Positions 6,440 through 16,268 of a DNA stretch of 20,525 nt are shown piece by piece. The stretch lies in the UHGV virus genome UHGV-2123520; one strand, written 5' to 3'. The position numbers and the translations under genes are program-made. How positions within the stretch are numbered: the first letter of the stretch is position 1; every line of letters begins with the position of its first letter. A model generated the notes under the pieces. It ran no database searches, was not told the DNA's origin, and saw nothing but the letters and a program-made list of their open reading frames with translations. Source of the DNA: a virus.

Positions 6440-7132
6440 CTAGGCGTGGCGTTTAAATGACTGAGATTGGCTTATCATTACTTTCCCGTAGACATAAAAA
6501 CGATGCTCATTCGATTTATCGACAGACCACTCTCGATATTTTGGGTTATCTGATATTACTAGCAATTGGTCTGGTATCATCTGCAAACGCTTAACATATA
6601 TTTTGTCATCAAAACCAAATACATATATACCATCGCCGTCGAATTCATGTATTGAAATATCAACGAAAATCAGGTCGCCAGGCTCAATAGTCTCTGCCAT
6701 GCTATCGCCACGAACGTTGATTACCTTCACTTGCTCAGCTGCCCGACCACCGAACATGGATAAAGCACGCTCGTTGTTGTATTCGATGGATCTGATGACA
6801 TCTATAACGTCGCTACCTTGAATAAAGCCTCCGCCAGCGCTAGCGCTAACATCAAGAATTTCCACTCTAAACACCGAGTCATCTCCAATATGTGGGGCTG
6901 TTACACTGTTTTTATATACAGTAGTTGCATTTCCACTAGGAGTAAATAGCTCAGCGACACTAACGCCTAAAGCTTCAGCATATTTACTAAGTGATTGTTC
7001 AGTAAATGACTTCTGCTTGCCGGTTTCAAGGCGAGAGATATTTGCGCCGTCGACACCGACAGCCTCTGCAAGATCAGCGATTTTCAGGCCCTTCGCAGTG
7101 CGAAGTTCTCTTATGCGGTTTCCAATATTCAT
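6440..7132 (-). CDS. CI-like phage repressor (XRE HTH plus S24 LexA-type peptidase domain)
   Basis: N-terminal HTH (IRELRTAKGLKIADLAEAVGVDGANISRLETGK), C-terminal RGDSM serine motif and downstream KR typical of autocleaving S24 repressors. Start placed at ATG 7132 (MNIGNRIRELR); the ORF track extends to 7195 through implausible N-terminal sequence. Confidence 0.8.
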   Translation of the reverse strand: MNIGNRIRELRTAKGLKIADLAEAVGVDGANISRLETGKQKSFTEQSLSKYAEALGVSVAELFTPSGNATTVYKNSVTAPHIGDDSVFRVEILDVSASAGGGFIQGSDVIDVIRSIEYNNERALSMFGGRAAEQVKVINVRGDSMAETIEPGDLIFVDISIHEFDGDGIYVFGFDDKIYVKRLQMIPDQLLVISDNPKYREWSVDKSNEHRFYVYGKVMISQSQSFKRHA

Positions 7133-7152
7133 GCGCCTATTACATGTTGTTT

Positions 7153-7216
7153 TTGCGTGATGTGCAAAGCAACTTGCGCAAGTCGTATGTTCCAATTAAT
7201 ATGCGTATTACGCAAT
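7153..7216. promoter_or_regulatory. OR-like operator cluster with divergent promoters between cI and cro
   Basis: Three dyads in the 97-bp intergenic region: ttgcgtgatgtgcaa (7153-7167), perfect 12-bp palindrome acttgcgcaagt (7172-7183), and tgcgta-t-tacgca within 7201-7216. Confidence 0.55.
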
Positions 7217-8389: not shown

Positions 8390-9260
8390 ATTAACCGGCT
8401 ACGTATGGGATGGTTGCGCATCGTCGGGCATGAAGTTGTCCAGTGTTGCGATCATGGCTCGTCTTGCTGACTTCAGCAGCGATGAAGGTGTGTGCTGGCC
8501 GTCAATTGAAACTATCGCTCGCCAGCTTGGCGCAGGGCCGAGCACTATCAGAACGGCAATCGCAAAGCTTGAAAAAGATGGCTGGCTCACGCGCACACAG
8601 CGCCGTAATGGTAACCGTAATGCTTCGAACGTGTACCGCCTGAATGTGGCGAAACTTCAGGCTGCCGCATTTTCTCAACTGTCAGATTCTGACACATCAA
8701 AATCTGACGCATCAAAATCTGACGCATCAAAATTTGACGCCTCAAAAACTGACCCGTCGAAATCCGTCAAAAACGGCGGTTTTGACCCGTCAGAATCTGG
8801 CGGGGATCCGTCAGTAAAATCAAAACAAGATCCACAAGTAACTTCAAAACCCTCTTGTCCGGTTGCGGCGCAACCAGACCCTGAGGTTGTGATTACTGAT
8901 CAGGCCAGACAGGTTTTGTCTTACCTGAACCAGACTACTGGCTCACGCTACCAGGTGTGCAGCACGTCGCTGGAGAATATTCGCGCCCGTCTTCGGGAAC
9001 AATTCACGGTTGATGACCTGTGCCTGGTAGTGGATTACAAAAATGCCGATTGGCGTGATAGCGAGCAGGCGCAATACCTCCGCCCGGCAACTCTGTTCAT
9101 TCCAAAAAACTTCCCTGGTTACCTGCAAAGCGCGACCAAATGGTCCAGTGCTGGCCGGCCTGAACGCGTTAACGGCAAATGGGAGACTAACTCAGCCAGC
9201 CGCGCAAACTTCCAGAGTGTTGATTACTCACTGCCAGAAAATTCGGGGTTCCGTTCATGA
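8379..9260 (+). CDS. Replication initiation protein (lambda O-like: N-terminal HTH, low-complexity linker, conserved C-terminal domain)
   Basis: N-terminal winged-HTH-like segment (SIETIARQLGAGPSTIRTAIAKLEKDGWL), S/D/K-rich linker encoded by the iteron repeats, conserved C-terminal phage domain (YLRPATLF); sits at the O position after cro. Confidence 0.6.
   Translation: MSTKLTGYVWDGCASSGMKLSSVAIMARLADFSSDEGVCWPSIETIARQLGAGPSTIRTAIAKLEKDGWLTRTQRRNGNRNASNVYRLNVAKLQAAAFSQLSDSDTSKSDASKSDASKFDASKTDPSKSVKNGGFDPSESGGDPSVKSKQDPQVTSKPSCPVAAQPDPEVVITDQARQVLSYLNQTTGSRYQVCSTSLENIRARLREQFTVDDLCLVVDYKNADWRDSEQAQYLRPATLFIPKNFPGYLQSATKWSSAGRPERVNGKWETNSASRANFQSVDYSLPENSGFRS
8688..8795. repeat. Iteron-like direct repeats (candidate replication origin) inside the O-like gene
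   Basis: Five tandem 15-bp units, tctgacacatcaaaa / tctgacgcatcaaaa (twice) / tttgacgcctcaaaa / actgacccgtcgaaa, at 8688-8762, followed by degenerate copies to about 8795. Confidence 0.6.
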
Positions 9261-10135
9261 TGACCAATAAATATTGCCAGGCGCTGGCGGCACTGCGTAG
9301 CAAACCAGCCCATGAATTGAAAGAAGTTGGCGATCAGTGGCGGACACCGGATCTGCTTTTTTGGGGGATCAACGCGCTATTTGGTCCATTAGTTCTGGAT
9401 TTGTTTGCTGACGACGACAACGCGAAATTCCCGGCATGGTACACCGCCGAAGATAACGCGCTGACGCAGGACTGGTCTGAACGTCTGGCTGAACTGGGTG
9501 GCGCTGGCTATGGCAACCCACCGTATAGCCGTTCGCAGTACCACGAGAAGCAGGTGATCACCGGCATGACCCACATCATGGATCACACAATGGAGATGCG
9601 TGAAAAGGGTGGGCGTTACGTGTTCCTCATTAAAGCGGCGACAAGTGAAACATGGTGGCCGGAAGACGCCGATCACATCATGTTTATTCGCGGTCGTATT
9701 GGCTTCGATCTGCCTGTGTGGTTTGTACCTGCTGACGAAAAACAGAAGCCCACCAGTGCGTTTTTTGCCGGTGCCATAGCTGTATTCGATAAGTCGTGGC
9801 GTGGTGAGCGGTTCAGCTATATCAACCGCACAGAACTGGAGGCAAAAGGTCGGGCATTTATGGCGCTGGCTCAATTCGCTGTTGGCAAAGAGCCGACAAT
9901 TGCAATGCGGGCAACCCAGGAGCCAGTCATACCATCGGAAACTGAGTCACGTATCTGGCCTCTCGAGGTTGGTCTGGTGTTTAACCAGGTGGAAGGCGTT
10001 GACGTATTGAGTGAGGCTCAGCAGAACAAGCTGAAAGCCAACATCAGTCAACTCTGGCTGGAACGAACGGCCACCAGCGAAATCATTACTGCAGCTTCTG
10101 AACTTGTTCGCAATATGCGGGGAGAGGCCGCGTGA
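9257..10135 (+). CDS. Phage Dam-family DNA N6-adenine methyltransferase with C-terminal extension
   Basis: DQWRTPDLLF near N-terminus and GNPPYS catalytic motif typical of the phage Dam family; ATGA overlap with the O-like stop. Confidence 0.7.
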   Translation: MMTNKYCQALAALRSKPAHELKEVGDQWRTPDLLFWGINALFGPLVLDLFADDDNAKFPAWYTAEDNALTQDWSERLAELGGAGYGNPPYSRSQYHEKQVITGMTHIMDHTMEMREKGGRYVFLIKAATSETWWPEDADHIMFIRGRIGFDLPVWFVPADEKQKPTSAFFAGAIAVFDKSWRGERFSYINRTELEAKGRAFMALAQFAVGKEPTIAMRATQEPVIPSETESRIWPLEVGLVFNQVEGVDVLSEAQQNKLKANISQLWLERTATSEIITAASELVRNMRGEAA

Positions 10136-12496: not shown

Positions 12497-13207
12497 GTGT
12501 ATGGAGCGCAAAGAAGCATGAATCAACAAGACCTGAATTTTGTAAGAATAGAATTGCGCCGCGCGCTACCTGACCTCTCCGGGGGAACAAAAGGGCAGCT
12601 TGAGGCTTTCAGTGAACACCCACCAGCAGACAAAAATGCCACCCCGCGCCGTGGAATTCATCTCGTCGAACTCGAAGGAGAGAAGGGGCCACGCTTTGTT
12701 AACTCGCTTTCCGCGCCACTGTATGTACTGGAAACACGCAGCCGCCGCAGGCCAATGCCGCCGATAAAAGATGCGGAATTTGAGTCCGCGCCGTGGCGTA
12801 GGGCAGTGTCCGCGCTTAGTGGATACCAGCAGGCCTGGTTGCGGTACTGCTACGGTTTTGACCTTAGCTATAAGCACCAGGTGATGATGTGTGAATACGT
12901 CTGGAAAACTTATCAGAAATGCCTGGGTGATAATTCCCTTCAGGATCGCGTAGTAAAGAAACTGATTGGCCTGGTATGGCTGGCAGGGCAGGAAATTGCC
13001 GCAACCAGAAATAATGAAACCTATAAAGACTATGCTGGTGCAGCGTTGGCCCGCATGGTTAGCGTTGACCGTTCGACATGGTTGCGTGTCTATTCAGGGC
13101 ACTGGGCTGGGTTAAAGACCGCTTTTACGCAGCTTGATGAATCTGCATTGGCCATGGCTCTGGAATACTATGAGGAAGAAGAAGCCCTCAAAGTGGCAGA
13201 AATGTGA
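12497..13207 (+). CDS. Putative late-gene antiterminator (Q-like) by position
   Basis: Last gene before a short intergenic region carrying a strong terminator and then the lysis genes, matching the lambda Q - pR' - tR' layout. No decisive motif recognised; start may be ATG 12518. Confidence 0.45.
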   Translation: MYGAQRSMNQQDLNFVRIELRRALPDLSGGTKGQLEAFSEHPPADKNATPRRGIHLVELEGEKGPRFVNSLSAPLYVLETRSRRRPMPPIKDAEFESAPWRRAVSALSGYQQAWLRYCYGFDLSYKHQVMMCEYVWKTYQKCLGDNSLQDRVVKKLIGLVWLAGQEIAATRNNETYKDYAGAALARMVSVDRSTWLRVYSGHWAGLKTAFTQLDESALAMALEYYEEEEALKVAEM

Positions 13208-13300
13208 AGTAAATTTCACTATCTCCTTCAAACACGCTTGCAAAATGCAACAAAATAAGCCATATTTAAAGCATATTTGATATGTTGCCAAAGTTTTATA

Positions 13301-13327
13301 AACCCGCCGATGAGCGGGTTTTTTTAT
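13301..13327 (+). terminator. tR'-like rho-independent terminator downstream of Q-like gene
   Basis: aacccgc cgatga gcgggtt followed by tttttat. Confidence 0.6.
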
Positions 13328-13447
13328 GGCAAATCAGCCATGCACGGCGCATAAAGGCGCTGGCGGTCGCAGAATGGAATTCTTCTCTTGCTGGTATCAC
13401 CAACCAGAGTTATCTGTATGTCACGCAACTAATTTTAGGTAAAAGAC

Positions 13448-13639
13448 ATGCTAAATCAGGAAGATATGACAGAAACGGCAAAGGCTGTTTTCAATGAATT
13501 AAGCGATAAACCAGCAACGGCTGGGGAGATTGCACAGAATACCCACCTCAGCCGCGAACGTTGCCAGCTCATACTTACGCAGCTGGTGATGGCGGGTTTA
13601 TCTGATTACCAGTTTGGATGTTATAAACGCCTCCAGTAA
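13448..13639 (+). CDS. Small winged-helix protein (PapI/FaeA-like by recalled similarity)
   Basis: 63-aa ORF; TAGEIAQNTHLSRERCQLILTQLVMAGL resembles the recognition helix region of PapI/FaeA-type regulators; first ORF after the tR'-like terminator. Confidence 0.35.
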   Translation: MLNQEDMTETAKAVFNELSDKPATAGEIAQNTHLSRERCQLILTQLVMAGLSDYQFGCYKRLQ

Positions 13640-13789
13640 TGGGGGCTTTCTGCTGTGGAAATGGGCGGCTGGTGGGTGTTAGCGCACCCGGCCAGCCATC
13701 AGCTCATGCTTTCAGGTCACAAGCTAACCAAGGCCCACTGCTTTAGCGCAAAAGCAACGTGAGCCTATCAGAGTTACGCTTACTGATCT

Positions 13790-14842
13790 ATGAAAAATAC
13801 TGTAAAAATAAACAGTGTTGAGTTAATCAACGCTGATAGCCTGCATTACGTCGCCACCCTCCCGGATAACTCTATTGATCTGATTGTTACGGATCCTCCG
13901 TACTTCAAAGTGAAGCCTAACGGCTGGGACAACCAATGGAAGGGGGACGAGGACTACTTACGCTGGCTTGATAGCTGCCTGGCTGAGTATGCTCGCGTAC
14001 TTAAACCTGCTGGCAGCATTTACCTGTTTTGCGGTCACCGACTGGCCTCAGACATAGAGATTATGATGCGTGCCCGGTTCAACGTTTTGAATCACATAAT
14101 TTGGGCAAAACCATCGGGCCGCTGGAATGGTTGTAACAAAGAAAGCCTGCGTGCGTACTTTCCATCTACGGAACGGATTTTGTTTGCTGAGCACTATCTT
14201 GGGCCGTACACAGGTAAAGAGGATGTTTACGAAAGGAAAAGCACAGAGCTAAAGCAGCACATTATGACGCCACTGATTGACTACTTCCGTAATGCCCGTG
14301 AATCGCTGGGTGTCAGCTCGAAAGAAATAGCTGAGGCAACCGGAAAGAAAAACATGGCGTCACACTGGTTTGGTGCAAGCCAATGGCAACTACCGAATGA
14401 AGTGGACTATCGAAAATTGCAGGAACTGTTCACGCGGATCGCCATCGATAAACATATTCAGCAAAAGCTTGAACATCCTCACCACCAGCTGGTGGCTACC
14501 TACCAGTCATTAAACCGCAAGTATTCAGAATTGCTGGAGGAATACAAAATCCTTCGGCGCTGCTTCTCTGTTTCCGCTCTTGTTCCGTATACCGACGTAT
14601 GGACGCATAAGCCTGTTCAGTTTTATCCAGGCAAACATCCATGTGAAAAACCCGCCGACATGCTGAAGCAGATCATTAGCGCCAGCAGCAGGCCGGGGGA
14701 TATCGTTGCCGATTTCTTTATGGGCTCTGGTTCAACTGTGAAAGCTGCAATAGAACTTGGCCGTCGGGCGATCGGAGTAGAACTGGAAGCTGACAGATTT
14801 ATTCAGACCACCGAAGAGGTGGAAAAACTGAGCAAAACATAA
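13790..14842 (+). CDS. DNA methyltransferase, beta-class N6-adenine/N4-cytosine (DPPY before FxGxG)
   Basis: IDLIVTDPPYF (motif IV) near N-terminus and DFFMGSGST (motif I) near C-terminus, the circularly permuted order of beta-class amino-MTases. Confidence 0.75.
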   Translation: MKNTVKINSVELINADSLHYVATLPDNSIDLIVTDPPYFKVKPNGWDNQWKGDEDYLRWLDSCLAEYARVLKPAGSIYLFCGHRLASDIEIMMRARFNVLNHIIWAKPSGRWNGCNKESLRAYFPSTERILFAEHYLGPYTGKEDVYERKSTELKQHIMTPLIDYFRNARESLGVSSKEIAEATGKKNMASHWFGASQWQLPNEVDYRKLQELFTRIAIDKHIQQKLEHPHHQLVATYQSLNRKYSELLEEYKILRRCFSVSALVPYTDVWTHKPVQFYPGKHPCEKPADMLKQIISASSRPGDIVADFFMGSGSTVKAAIELGRRAIGVELEADRFIQTTEEVEKLSKT

Positions 14843-14987
14843 CGATCATCACGCCCTGTGGATGTGGTGATTACCATTTTCAGGCACCGGGAATCATCCT
14901 TACTTTTATTTGAACAAAAGAGCCCGGTTGCCTGATTCCACATCCCCTCATTTCTGAGAGGAATCACAGCAATTAAGAGGGGGCTAA

Positions 14988-15374
14988 ATGTCCGATCCGA
15001 TTTCCGGTACTGGGCTGGCTGGTGGTGTCCTGACGGGGGCCAGCGTCTATGGATTTCTGTCCGGAACCGATTACGGTGTGGTGTTTGGCGCATTTGCCGG
15101 GGCTGTTTTTTACATTGCAACTGCAGCGGATCTAAGTGCAGCGCGCCGACTGGCATATTTTCTGGTGTCGTATATCGCGGGGATCCTTTGTTCCGGGCTG
15201 GTGGGTTCAAAGCTGGCTCAGGCTACCGGCTACAGTGATAAACCACTGGATGCCATTGGCGCCGTAATCGTTTCTGCTTTAGCCGTCAAAATCCTGACGT
15301 TCCTGAATAATCAGGATGTTGGCTCGCTGGTGGCGCTGATAACGCGCCGGGGAGGTTCAGGTGGTACAAAATGA
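14988..15374 (+). CDS. Putative holin
   Basis: 128-aa protein with several hydrophobic Gly/Ala-rich membrane-spanning segments and a charged C-terminus; AAGAGGGGG RBS; immediately upstream of endolysin. Confidence 0.55.
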   Translation: MSDPISGTGLAGGVLTGASVYGFLSGTDYGVVFGAFAGAVFYIATAADLSAARRLAYFLVSYIAGILCSGLVGSKLAQATGYSDKPLDAIGAVIVSALAVKILTFLNNQDVGSLVALITRRGGSGGTK

Positions 15375-15642
15375 CCCATCGGCAACTTTAAATGCATTGC
15401 TTTGCGCTGGGGTAGTGCTGACCTTGATGTTTTACCGTCGTGGTGATTCCCGACATCGACCGTGGATATCTCGCCTGGCGTGGCTGCTTACGGTCATCTA
15501 CAGCGCAGTTCCGCTGGCGTATCTGTGCGGTATATACCCGTACTCATCATGGGCCACTATCGGGGCCAACATTATCTTTCTGTCCGTGCTGGTCGCCGTC
15601 AGAGGCAACGTGGCACGTCTGGTAGATCATCTGAGGCAATAA
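15361..15642 (+). CDS. Holin/antiholin-like small membrane protein
   Basis: 93-aa ORF with two to three hydrophobic segments; GTG start overlapping upstream gene; its TAA overlaps the endolysin ATG (TAATG). Confidence 0.45.
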   Translation: MVQNDPSATLNALLCAGVVLTLMFYRRGDSRHRPWISRLAWLLTVIYSAVPLAYLCGIYPYSSWATIGANIIFLSVLVAVRGNVARLVDHLRQ

Positions 15643-16268
15643 TGAACCAATCACAATTTCAGCAGGCGGCTGGTATCAGCGCCGGGCTTTCTGCACGCTG
15701 GTTTCCGCACATTGATGCGGCAATGAAAGAATTCGGCATTACGACAAAACTCGATCAGGCCATGTTTATTGCGCAATGTGGGCACGAAAGCACTGGCTTT
15801 ACCCAACTGGTGGAAAGCTTCAACTATAGCATCGACGGATTAGCCTATTTTGTGAAAGTAAAGCGGCTTACTCCAGACCAGGCCAGTGCGCTGGGAAGAA
15901 AAAATTACGAAAAAGTTCTGCCACTCGAACGCCAGCGGGCGATTGCAAATCTGGTATACGGAGGCCGCTTTGGCAACAAGTCGGCTGGTGATGGGTGGAA
16001 ATACCGGGGGCGCGGAATTATAGGGATCACCTTCCTGGATAACTACCTGACCTGTGGTACGGCGTTAAAACTGGATTTAGTCAGCAACCCTGAACTGCTG
16101 GGAAAAGACATTAACGCTGCACGCAGCGCTGCCTGGTTCTATGTTTCAAACGGTTGTCTACGGTATCCGGGCGATTTGGAGCGTGTCACACAGATTATTA
16201 ACGGCGGGCAGAACGGCATTAAAGACCGCCGTGAACGTTACGCCAAAGCTAAAGCCGCACTGGTGTGA
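15642..16268 (+). CDS. Endolysin, glycoside hydrolase family 19 (chitinase-like lysozyme)
   Basis: AQCGHESTGF, YRGRGIIGITFLDNY and catalytic-region spacing characteristic of GH19. Start at ATG 15642 (MNQSQFQQAAG) with TGAGG RBS; the ORF-track start at 15462 is in the overlap with the upstream gene. Confidence 0.8.
   Translation: MNQSQFQQAAGISAGLSARWFPHIDAAMKEFGITTKLDQAMFIAQCGHESTGFTQLVESFNYSIDGLAYFVKVKRLTPDQASALGRKNYEKVLPLERQRAIANLVYGGRFGNKSAGDGWKYRGRGIIGITFLDNYLTCGTALKLDLVSNPELLGKDINAARSAAWFYVSNGCLRYPGDLERVTQIINGGQNGIKDRRERYAKAKAALV

Follow-up and report, generated by a model that had tools for sequence, protein, structure and literature searches.

A conserved structured leader RNA and a small winged-helix gene accompany an M.EcoGII-family adenine methyltransferase in lambdoid prophages

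Several phage-borne DNA methyltransferases (MTases) are known that modify adenine irrespective of its sequence context. M.EcoGII, from an E. coli O104:H4 prophage (M.EcoGII/M.EcoGI; PMC5778455), methylates adenine without sequence specificity (PMC5778455, Murray et al. 2018), and SUPREM and Anc291, which represent deeper nodes of the M.EcoGII clade, have been found experimentally to be non-specific as well (PMC11551740). Chromatin footprinting, MadID and RNA m6A tools all make standard use of M.EcoGII. The literature on its native gene describes it as 'not expressed' in the lysogen and toxic when constitutive: the lysogen keeps the gene silent, and clones with constitutive expression are slow-growing and unstable (PMC5778455; review PMC12707154). 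In a second group of systems, Mu com-mom, com-hin1523 and comHia-hia5, the gene of a small translational activator precedes that of a toxic DNA modifier of relaxed specificity; Hia5 and Hin1523 are non-specific adenine MTases (PMC3299994, Drozdz et al. 2012). Here we analyse the virus genome UHGV-2123520, a stretch of 20,525 nucleotides (nt) referred to below as the window, in which an MTase gene of the M.EcoGII family is preceded by a conserved structured leader RNA and by a gene for a 63-residue winged-helix protein. We consider it probable that these elements make up a late, Q-dependent cassette of lambdoid prophages of Enterobacterales, composed of the winged-helix protein, a leader of ~165 nt and a non-specific MTase, which hypermethylates DNA for broad anti-restriction.

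The window is a lambdoid prophage. The cassette and the elements immediately upstream of it, including the winged-helix open reading frame (ORF), are arranged as follows.

12497-13207, plus strand: Q antiterminator gene (Pfam PF06323, Phage_antiter_Q, 3.1e-36).
13300-13321 (feature span to 13328), plus strand: tR'-like intrinsic terminator, AAACCCGCCGATGAGCGGGTTT followed by a T-run, with an 8-bp stem (terminator scan).
13448-13639, plus strand: winged-helix ORF, 63 amino acids (aa).
13629-13656, plus strand: P0 hairpin with a U-rich tail (terminator scan match at 13629-13646).
13657-13789, plus strand: core of the structured leader RNA (RNAalifold consensus, pair counts and covariance model).
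13790-14842, plus strand: orphan beta-class N6-adenine MTase of the M.EcoGII family, 350 aa (PF01555, 4.7e-44).

An earlier annotation made from the letters alone, below called the sequence-only reading, had placed both ORFs exactly, with the same lengths. It had also set them between the tR'-like terminator and the holin genes, and there they lie: the hairpin and its T-run occupy 13300-13321, and the holins begin at 14988.

The MTase has DPPY (residues 35-38) ahead of FFMGSGST (near residue 310), the motif order of the beta class; its Pfam N6_N4_Mtase match extends over residues 29-336 with a central insertion of ~100 aa, and no restriction endonuclease gene lies adjacent to it in the window. 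Motif order, PF01555 match and the lack of a neighbouring endonuclease gene confirm that it is an orphan beta-class amino-MTase, as had been proposed. In PADLOC the MTase_II model matches at 4.6e-142, only generic MTase models match anywhere in the phage, and the nearest solved structures are distant beta-class enzymes only. Full-length identity is 75% to M.EcoGII, 83% to the resurrected ancestor Anc291 and 70% to SUPREM/Anc284, values that are approximate, the three sequences having been taken from the machine-read PDF of the supplement to the SUPREM paper, with some gaps attributable to optical character recognition errors. The alignments span ~348 aa and contain 2-4 gapped positions each, none of them in the target recognition domain (TRD), and all catalytic motifs are intact. 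The enzyme shares with M.EcoGII the DPPY...TRD...FxGxG layout, a near-identical length (350 versus 349 aa) and the prophage setting; it is a different allele, probably from a Citrobacter prophage, and its activity is predicted. The nearest relative of its gene lies on a Citrobacter murliniae chromosome (99% identity), so that the host is probably Citrobacter or a close relative; the best match among complete E. coli genomes is Nissle 1917 (95.9%).

Taken together, we predict the MTase to be a new member of the known M.EcoGII family that is non-specific for adenine context. It is quite unlikely that it is instead sequence-specific or an inert remnant, in which case the cassette would serve anti-restriction in the ordinary, motif-specific way or would hold a gene in decay. 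Specificity is not readable from sequence, and 25% of the residues differ from M.EcoGII, those of the TRD included; the full-length alignments to three tested enzymes, with so few gaps and with intact catalytic motifs, nevertheless argue against this possibility, as does the fact that the tested enzymes, which sample deeper nodes of this clade, are without exception non-specific. Moreover, the gene is intact in hundreds of loci. The sequence-only reading had envisaged a methylated motif that could be sought in the phage promoters. Comparison with the characterised enzymes, which answers the REBASE check that it had proposed, predicts a non-specific member of the M.EcoGII clade, so there would be no motif for promoters to contain, and of the two functions then suggested, an epigenetic regulatory module or anti-restriction cargo, the latter is the better.

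The stretch between the small ORF and the MTase gene is more conserved than the coding DNA that flanks it. Its identity is 85-95% in pairs of loci whose MTase genes reach only 66-81% overall, and 44-58% at their third codon positions, and it is conserved even in loci without the small ORF. RNAalifold predicted a helix junction here, the helices of which were then defined in window coordinates.

13630-34 with 13641-45: P0, GCCUCC-AGUAAU-GGGGGC.
13662-66 with 13733-37: P1.
13667-78 with 13685-97: P2.
13701-08 with 13718-25: P3.
13739-44 with 13751-56: P4, with a GCGC loop.
13757-13789: conserved 3' tail, ending at the MTase AUG.

In a MAFFT alignment made without any structure fitting, 91.1% of pair positions are paired and 21 of the 33 pairs show compensatory change; none of 500 shuffles was as good, and slid controls reached 31-47%. 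An alignment of 65 sequences to a covariance model (CM), which is fitted to the structure and hence leans towards it, gives 95.0% paired positions and compensatory change at 22 of 33 pairs (0/500 shuffles; slid controls 32-46%). Compensatory changes occur at all five pairs of P0. In P1, GGGC/GCCC changes to GAGC/GCUC and to GGGG/CCCC, and in P2 GGGUG/CACCC changes to ACAUG/CAUGU, while the first pair of P3 is found as C-G (29), A-U (19) and U-A (9); G-U pairs fit the sense strand only. The CM has a single match in the window (193 bits) and one match directly upstream of the MTase gene in each of 64 family loci, and it finds no leader beside distant beta-class MTases. When IMG/VR was scanned with a DNA pattern for the 5' part of the leader, the MTase was the next gene in 114 of the 121 occurrences; three of the others lie at contig ends and four are truncated remnants joined to other cargo. 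On these results, the leader is a folded RNA that goes with the MTase gene.

Two further possibilities for this stretch were considered and dropped. One is that it is coding: an ORF of 33 codons begins in the window at the leader AUGGGC, but most relatives carry an early TAG, and for this reason the leader is not regarded as coding. The ORF is opened in the window and a few relatives (13662-13763) by a variant of the P2 loop, GUUAGCGCACCC in place of GUUGUAGCACCC, that removes the stop codon, and it is not conserved elsewhere. The other is a long-range UUCUG/CAGAG helix, the 5' side of which, judged by eye, varies without compensation.

A known RNA family was ruled out, as a cmscan of 13100-15050 against Rfam 15 placed nothing on 13630-13795 at E<=1; sub-threshold matches to leader and small RNA families reflect the tR' hairpin only. 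RefSeq annotates no RNA at the leader in E. coli Nissle. Nothing relevant came up when the literature was searched for the sequence of the leader or for reports of M.EcoGII being under late or antitermination control, and a keyword search of the M.EcoGII papers found no description of the leader RNA or the small ORF. The leader is thus a well-supported candidate RNA motif, apparently undescribed and absent from Rfam. Might it be a metabolite riboswitch, with S-adenosylmethionine (SAM) or S-adenosylhomocysteine as the natural ligands, that ties MTase translation to the cofactor, the small ORF being unrelated cargo? The multi-helix junction, the highly conserved unpaired nucleotides, the position directly before an AUG that has no canonical Shine-Dalgarno (SD) sequence and the link to a SAM-consuming enzyme would all suit such an element. 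However, there is no Rfam riboswitch match at E<=1 and no alternative, mutually exclusive helix with covariation support, and unrelated cargo would not show the tight linkage and the fixed spacing of the small ORF; we therefore judge a riboswitch improbable.

The arrangement is not peculiar to the window. The order Q, small ORF, ~150 nt, MTase and lysis genes recurs in many phages, among them SfV (orf47/orf48), Citrobacter phiNP, mEp460, cdtI and Klebsiella phages, the Stx phages phiP27, Stx2c and 1720a-02, in which tRNAs and stx come after the MTase, and phages of Hafnia, Providencia and Morganella, the MTases of which are just 62-74% identical; the small ORF is kept beside divergent MTases of 62-73% identity. 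About 1,127 of 5,426 complete E. coli genomes match the cassette. Viewed from the MTase, 101 of 134 loci have the small ORF as the immediate upstream neighbour, 147-160 nt away. Viewed from the small ORF (80 loci), the MTase lies at 147-154 nt in 75, the remainder being contig ends (two) or replacement cargo (three), so that the MTase follows in 75 of the 78 evaluable loci. The same small ORF and leader accompany M.EcoGII-type genes, 93-95% identical to M.EcoGII, in loci L166 and L032. This widespread, conserved, three-part cassette is absent from the sequence-only reading, which had placed the two genes in a slot equivalent to that of the toxin genes of Stx phages. The cassette does sit after Q, but it co-occurs with stx and does not replace it: in phiP27 and the Stx2c phages it stands between Q and the tRNA-stx genes, and the slot is therefore not strictly stx-equivalent. 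In phiP27 (L001:5993-7572) and the Stx2c/Stx2a phages, where the cassette lies upstream of the ileZ/argO tRNAs and stx, leader and MTase thus belong to a late transcript that also encodes the toxin.

Q makes late transcription downstream terminator-resistant. The MTase gene is located behind two terminator-like hairpins, tR' and P0. The second of these encloses the UAA stop codon of the small ORF in its loop and is followed by a U-rich stretch; it was called terminator-like by the scan, and E. coli-type relatives have longer U-tracts, the tract having been judged from the terminator scan together with reading of the sequence, as the automated count was unreliable (the minimum free energy (MFE) fold added outer pairs). 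No sigma70-like promoter was found in 12900-15050, where 2.9 were expected, and a promoter belonging to the small ORF or the MTase itself was discarded as a candidate, none being predicted. With two terminator-like hairpins and no predicted promoter, the anatomy fits expression by Q-modified polymerase only.

The region around the MTase start codon is less clear-cut. The AUG lacks a canonical SD sequence. Leaders of the M.EcoGII type and divergent leaders contain a single AGG, which forms part of the 3' strand of a possible hairpin (GCCU/AGGC). This helix, P5 (GAGCCU/..GCUU), is plausible, and clearer in these same leaders; it was not retained, having no covariation support. Likewise set aside were two pseudoknots, GGUCA (P3 loop)/UGAUC (near the AUG) and GGUCAC/GUGAGCC, which are 90-94% compatible with the alignment only because both sides are conserved, and which show no compensatory changes. 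The conserved P3-loop sequence G(G/A)UCAC (13715-13720) reads the same as GAUCAC, with which 16S rRNA ends at its 3' side, and it is the complement of the UGAUC that precedes the AUG. Judging from these letters, the P3 loop may imitate the anti-SD sequence and pair with a weak SD sequence; this pairing is 94% compatible and without covariation.

The 63-aa ORF is a genuine gene, with 303 close homologs across Enterobacterales and under purifying selection (pN/pS, the ratio of nonsynonymous to synonymous change, is 0.05-0.26 against relatives). It matches phrog_331, of unknown function, at 1.8e-32. The DprA_WH profile (PF17782) matches 32 of 32 non-redundant family members (best 3.4e-8) and TrmB matches weakly, while the window protein itself scores 21.3 bits on DprA_WH, under the Pfam gathering threshold of 22.9; RefSeq names family members 'DprA-like winged helix domain-containing protein' or 'TrmB family transcriptional regulator'. 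Although DprA_WH and TrmB winged helices thus offer the best profile similarity, the window protein stands alone and is not a DprA domain. Its AlphaFold2 model (predicted local distance difference test score, pLDDT, 90.7) has an H-H-H-beta-beta topology, with three helices and a beta-hairpin wing. Model and profiles alike bear out the winged helix-turn-helix (wHTH) assignment that had been made from the sequence. A hidden Markov model search over 1.84 billion representatives yielded just 86 clusters, all of standalone proteins of 45-115 aa, and no informative domain fusion among the 86 family representatives. Homologs of only ~35-55% identity still have helix 3 (RCQLILTQLVMAGL) and the N-terminal MLxQxDMT in nearly invariant form. 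Foldseek against the PDB returned generic wHTH neighbours only (best E 1.2e-3): the best are N-terminal wHTH dimerisation domains of SAM-dependent O-methyltransferases, followed by the mRNA-binding winged helix of SelB, IclR/MarR regulators and Z-alpha. As modelled, the small protein amounts to a minimal winged helix of generic type.

These neighbours invite the idea that the MTase protein is the target of the winged-helix protein, which as its subunit, chaperone or antitoxin-like inhibitor would alter its activity or specificity, the leader working independently. In addition to the O-methyltransferase dimerisation domains at the top of the structural matches, the acidic character of the small protein (manual residue count) would be in keeping with this, as would the fact that beta-class MTases act as dimers (PMC7544214) and that the small ORF depends on the MTase (75/78 loci) more than the MTase depends on it. 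M.EcoGII, however, is fully active and non-specific on its own, in vivo and in vitro, and no fusion of the domain to any MTase exists among the 1.84 billion representatives; a direct partner of the enzyme is in our view unlikely.

A DNA-binding controller akin to the C proteins of restriction-modification systems, for which part of the spacer would be an operator, for example the near-palindrome GCTTTAGCGC(A/T)AAAGC at P4, and which would set the timing or the extent of MTase transcription, seems to us equally unlikely. The wHTH fold with weak TrmB, MarR, IclR and ArsR similarity, the nearly invariant helix 3 across divergent homologs and the fact that P4 is a 16-bp perfect or near-perfect palindrome in DNA speak for it. 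Yet P1-P3 are long-range or non-palindromic, change in compensatory fashion and contain G-U pairs that make sense as sense-strand RNA only; P4 changes in sequence, with its pairing kept, in lineages where helix 3 is unchanged; the leader is no less conserved in loci without the protein; and there is no predicted promoter nearby to control, the protein moreover being acidic by the same manual count. The known C proteins share with the window a small HTH gene just upstream of a modification gene whose timing matters. They are, however, HTH proteins of the Xre type, with DNA C-boxes at a promoter as their binding sites, and come with an endonuclease, whereas the window has neither endonuclease nor predicted promoter, and the conserved element between its genes is an RNA structure.

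The sequence-only reading had likened the small ORF to the PapI/FaeA regulators and had suggested an epigenetic switch formed with the MTase. Eight annotated PapI, AfaF and FaeA-family genes from plasmids served as positive controls, and a PapI sequence matched an annotated papI at 98.7%. PapI and FaeA-family controls match PF04703 (FaeA) at 108-114 bits (E 1e-31 to 1e-33), whereas none of 32 small-ORF family members does so, even at E<=10. Profile-profile comparison with hhalign gave a probability of 15% at 23% identity, PapI and the small ORF aligning in register over H1-H3. The invariants of the eight annotated PapI-family members, YQARxYL in helix 3 and RxPxRxGxxTxW in the wing, are absent from the small ORF, which has RERCQLIL and SDYQFGCYKRLQ in their place, and PapI is not among the top 50 PDB structural neighbours of the small protein. 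Nor is the setting fimbrial: the gene is flanked by Q/tR' on one side and by the MTase and holins on the other, both in the window and in every relative examined. Membership of PapI/FaeA is hence ruled out by Pfam, profile-profile and motif tests with positive controls and by the fold search, and the profile searches found the ORF unrelated to the family, the outcome that the earlier annotation had itself named as refuting its proposal.

A Dam/Lrp-style phase-variation switch, in which a PapI/FaeA co-regulator would act with a sequence-specific orphan MTase, must accordingly be considered very improbable indeed. It could appeal to the wHTH nature of both proteins (~60-77 aa, in register over H1-H3; small, standalone and of H1-H2-H3-wing topology), to a GATC 5 nt upstream of the MTase ATG (13783-13786) that is conserved in the main leader group, and to the Dam-type MTase which the phage also carries. 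Set against this are the complete lack of PF04703 matches where true members reach 1e-31 to 1e-33, the low hhalign probability, the missing invariant motifs and the position of PapI outside the top 50 structures; furthermore, the MTase falls in a non-specific clade and the setting is a phage late operon, not a fimbrial one. As the tested members of the M.EcoGII clade are context-free, a motif-based switch in the manner of Dam is unlikely and there would be no motif for promoters; the proposed Dam-like module is undercut by the MTase's place in this clade.

How, then, could the cassette work? In the lysogen it would be silent behind tR' and P0, having no predicted promoter of its own, much as has been reported for M.EcoGII. 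After induction, Q-modified RNA polymerase would be expected from lambdoid biology to read through both hairpins. The MTase would then methylate adenines of the replicating phage DNA in nearly any context, and the progeny would be broadly protected against restriction in the next host, an expectation that draws on the 70-83% identity to three tested enzymes. The folded leader, abutting an AUG without a canonical SD sequence, might additionally gate synthesis in cis, an extra layer proposed because the MTase is presumably toxic. The weakest step concerns the winged-helix protein, which would be a dedicated accessory, most likely a regulator of the leader or of the MTase, by a logic like that of Com in the Mu com-mom operon. 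A more far-reaching version, in which the leader is a new cis-regulatory RNA switch gating a toxic MTase, with the winged-helix protein as its RNA-binding effector (a Com analogue) or with the leader itself sensing a small molecule or the MTase, is a tentative possibility to which we give clearly less credence.

Several observations weigh against the cassette as outlined. On the transcriptional side, pR' was not located by a consensus scan. On the side of the leader, two family loci (L023, L043) have the MTase without it, the AUG is unpaired and not sequestered in the MFE fold of the window leader, and covariation was found neither for the start-proximal helix P5 nor for the two candidate pseudoknots. 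As to the protein, the winged-helix gene is missing from about 25-30% of MTase loci, where leader and intact MTase persist, and the protein therefore cannot be an obligatory activator in cis; its net charge of about -2 (manual residue count) is atypical for a nucleic-acid binder; and its closest structural neighbours are protein-dimerisation wHTH domains.

The comparison with Mu com-mom is instructive in both directions. Shared is the logic of a small upstream gene co-transcribed with a late, toxic anti-restriction enzyme of relaxed specificity and of a structured leader between the two, the toxicity and relaxed specificity of the window MTase being extrapolated from M.EcoGII. In contrast, Com is a zinc-finger protein (the comHia homolog has 39 residues; PMC3299994), whereas the window protein is a 63-aa winged helix, Pfam scans of which matched wHTH families only and not the Com family. 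The mom leader is a single translation-inhibiting stem, that of the window a multi-helix junction of ~130 nt; and mom transcription is gated by C/OxyR/Dam, that of the window cassette probably by Q antitermination. A strictly Com-like model would also have to accommodate the quarter or so of loci without the small ORF, the acidic protein and its dimerisation-type neighbours.

The MTase itself is a phage enzyme of an ordinary, known kind. What was unexpected is the structured leader and the tightly linked three-part architecture, of which no description was found. The native gene family of a widely used enzyme turns out to have a conserved structured leader and a dedicated winged-helix partner behind two terminators, so that how a non-specific MTase is kept safe and switched on becomes testable with defined mutations, and hypermethylated virion DNA is to be expected rather than a methylation motif or a Pap-like switch. 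The candidate RNA motif lies in very well-studied genomes, and in some Shiga-toxin phages it sits upstream of stx, within the toxin-making late transcript. Were the RNA-switch proposal to hold, it would amount to an unrecognised post-transcriptional safety lock in about one-fifth of complete E. coli genomes, guarding the natural gene of an enzyme in wide biotechnological use.

Variation among the relatives outlines the module further. In relatives lacking the small ORF, the stretch from tR' to the leader is a cargo hot spot (L007:1883-2782, L167:1594-2463, L163:1236-2266, L014/L018:2558-2797, L017:2140-2835), holding a SDH/ClpP-like serine protease, a SocA/Panacea antitoxin-domain protein, a Cys-rich 79-aa ORF with four CxxC-like pairs and several ORFs of 160-230 aa without a Pfam match. 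In L049, also without the small ORF, a remote homolog of it is probable. Other loci keep the small ORF while AT-rich cargo genes have replaced the MTase: L311, L324 and L374, and also L185, L226, L252 and L272, in which a leader remnant survives, its first ~45 nt, comprising the P1 5' strand and P2. These loci are recombination scars that mark module boundaries. In Enterobacter sp. Bisph1 (L054:2841-3270), the leader is intact (150 bits), the ATG has changed (TTTAAG) and MTase residues 2-91 are left; this is a decaying MTase copy.

The remainder of the window has the following features.

6440-7195, minus strand: CI-like repressor.
Between the CI-like repressor and the Dam-type MTase: CII-like protein and replication genes.
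9257-10135, plus strand: Dam-type N6-adenine MTase, the other methyltransferase of the phage (PF05869 Dam, 5.3e-43; PADLOC MTase_II, 2.7e-164).
Between the Dam-type MTase and Q: RusA, an ORF6N/ANT antirepressor and a DUF968 protein.
14988-15374, plus strand: holin 1 (Phage_holin_8 / Phage_holin_3_7, 9.7e-34 / 1.1e-19 for the pair of holins).
15361-15642, plus strand: holin 2, which together with holin 1 starts the lysis cassette.
~15642-16268: GH19-type endolysin, directly after the holins, with the terminase further on.

A 71-aa ORF at 13282-13497 (plus strand) overlaps tR' and the start of the small ORF; it has no match in Pfam, PHROGs or NCBIfam and is probably not a gene. The two holin genes overlap each other and are of different families (Phage_holin_8 versus Phage_holin_3_7). 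The Dam-type MTase (9257-10135) sits in the early/replication region, and the MTase of the cassette is indeed, as the sequence-only reading had it, the second in the same phage. The phage thus carries two unrelated adenine MTases, one probably of the GATC type and early, the other predicted to be non-specific and late.

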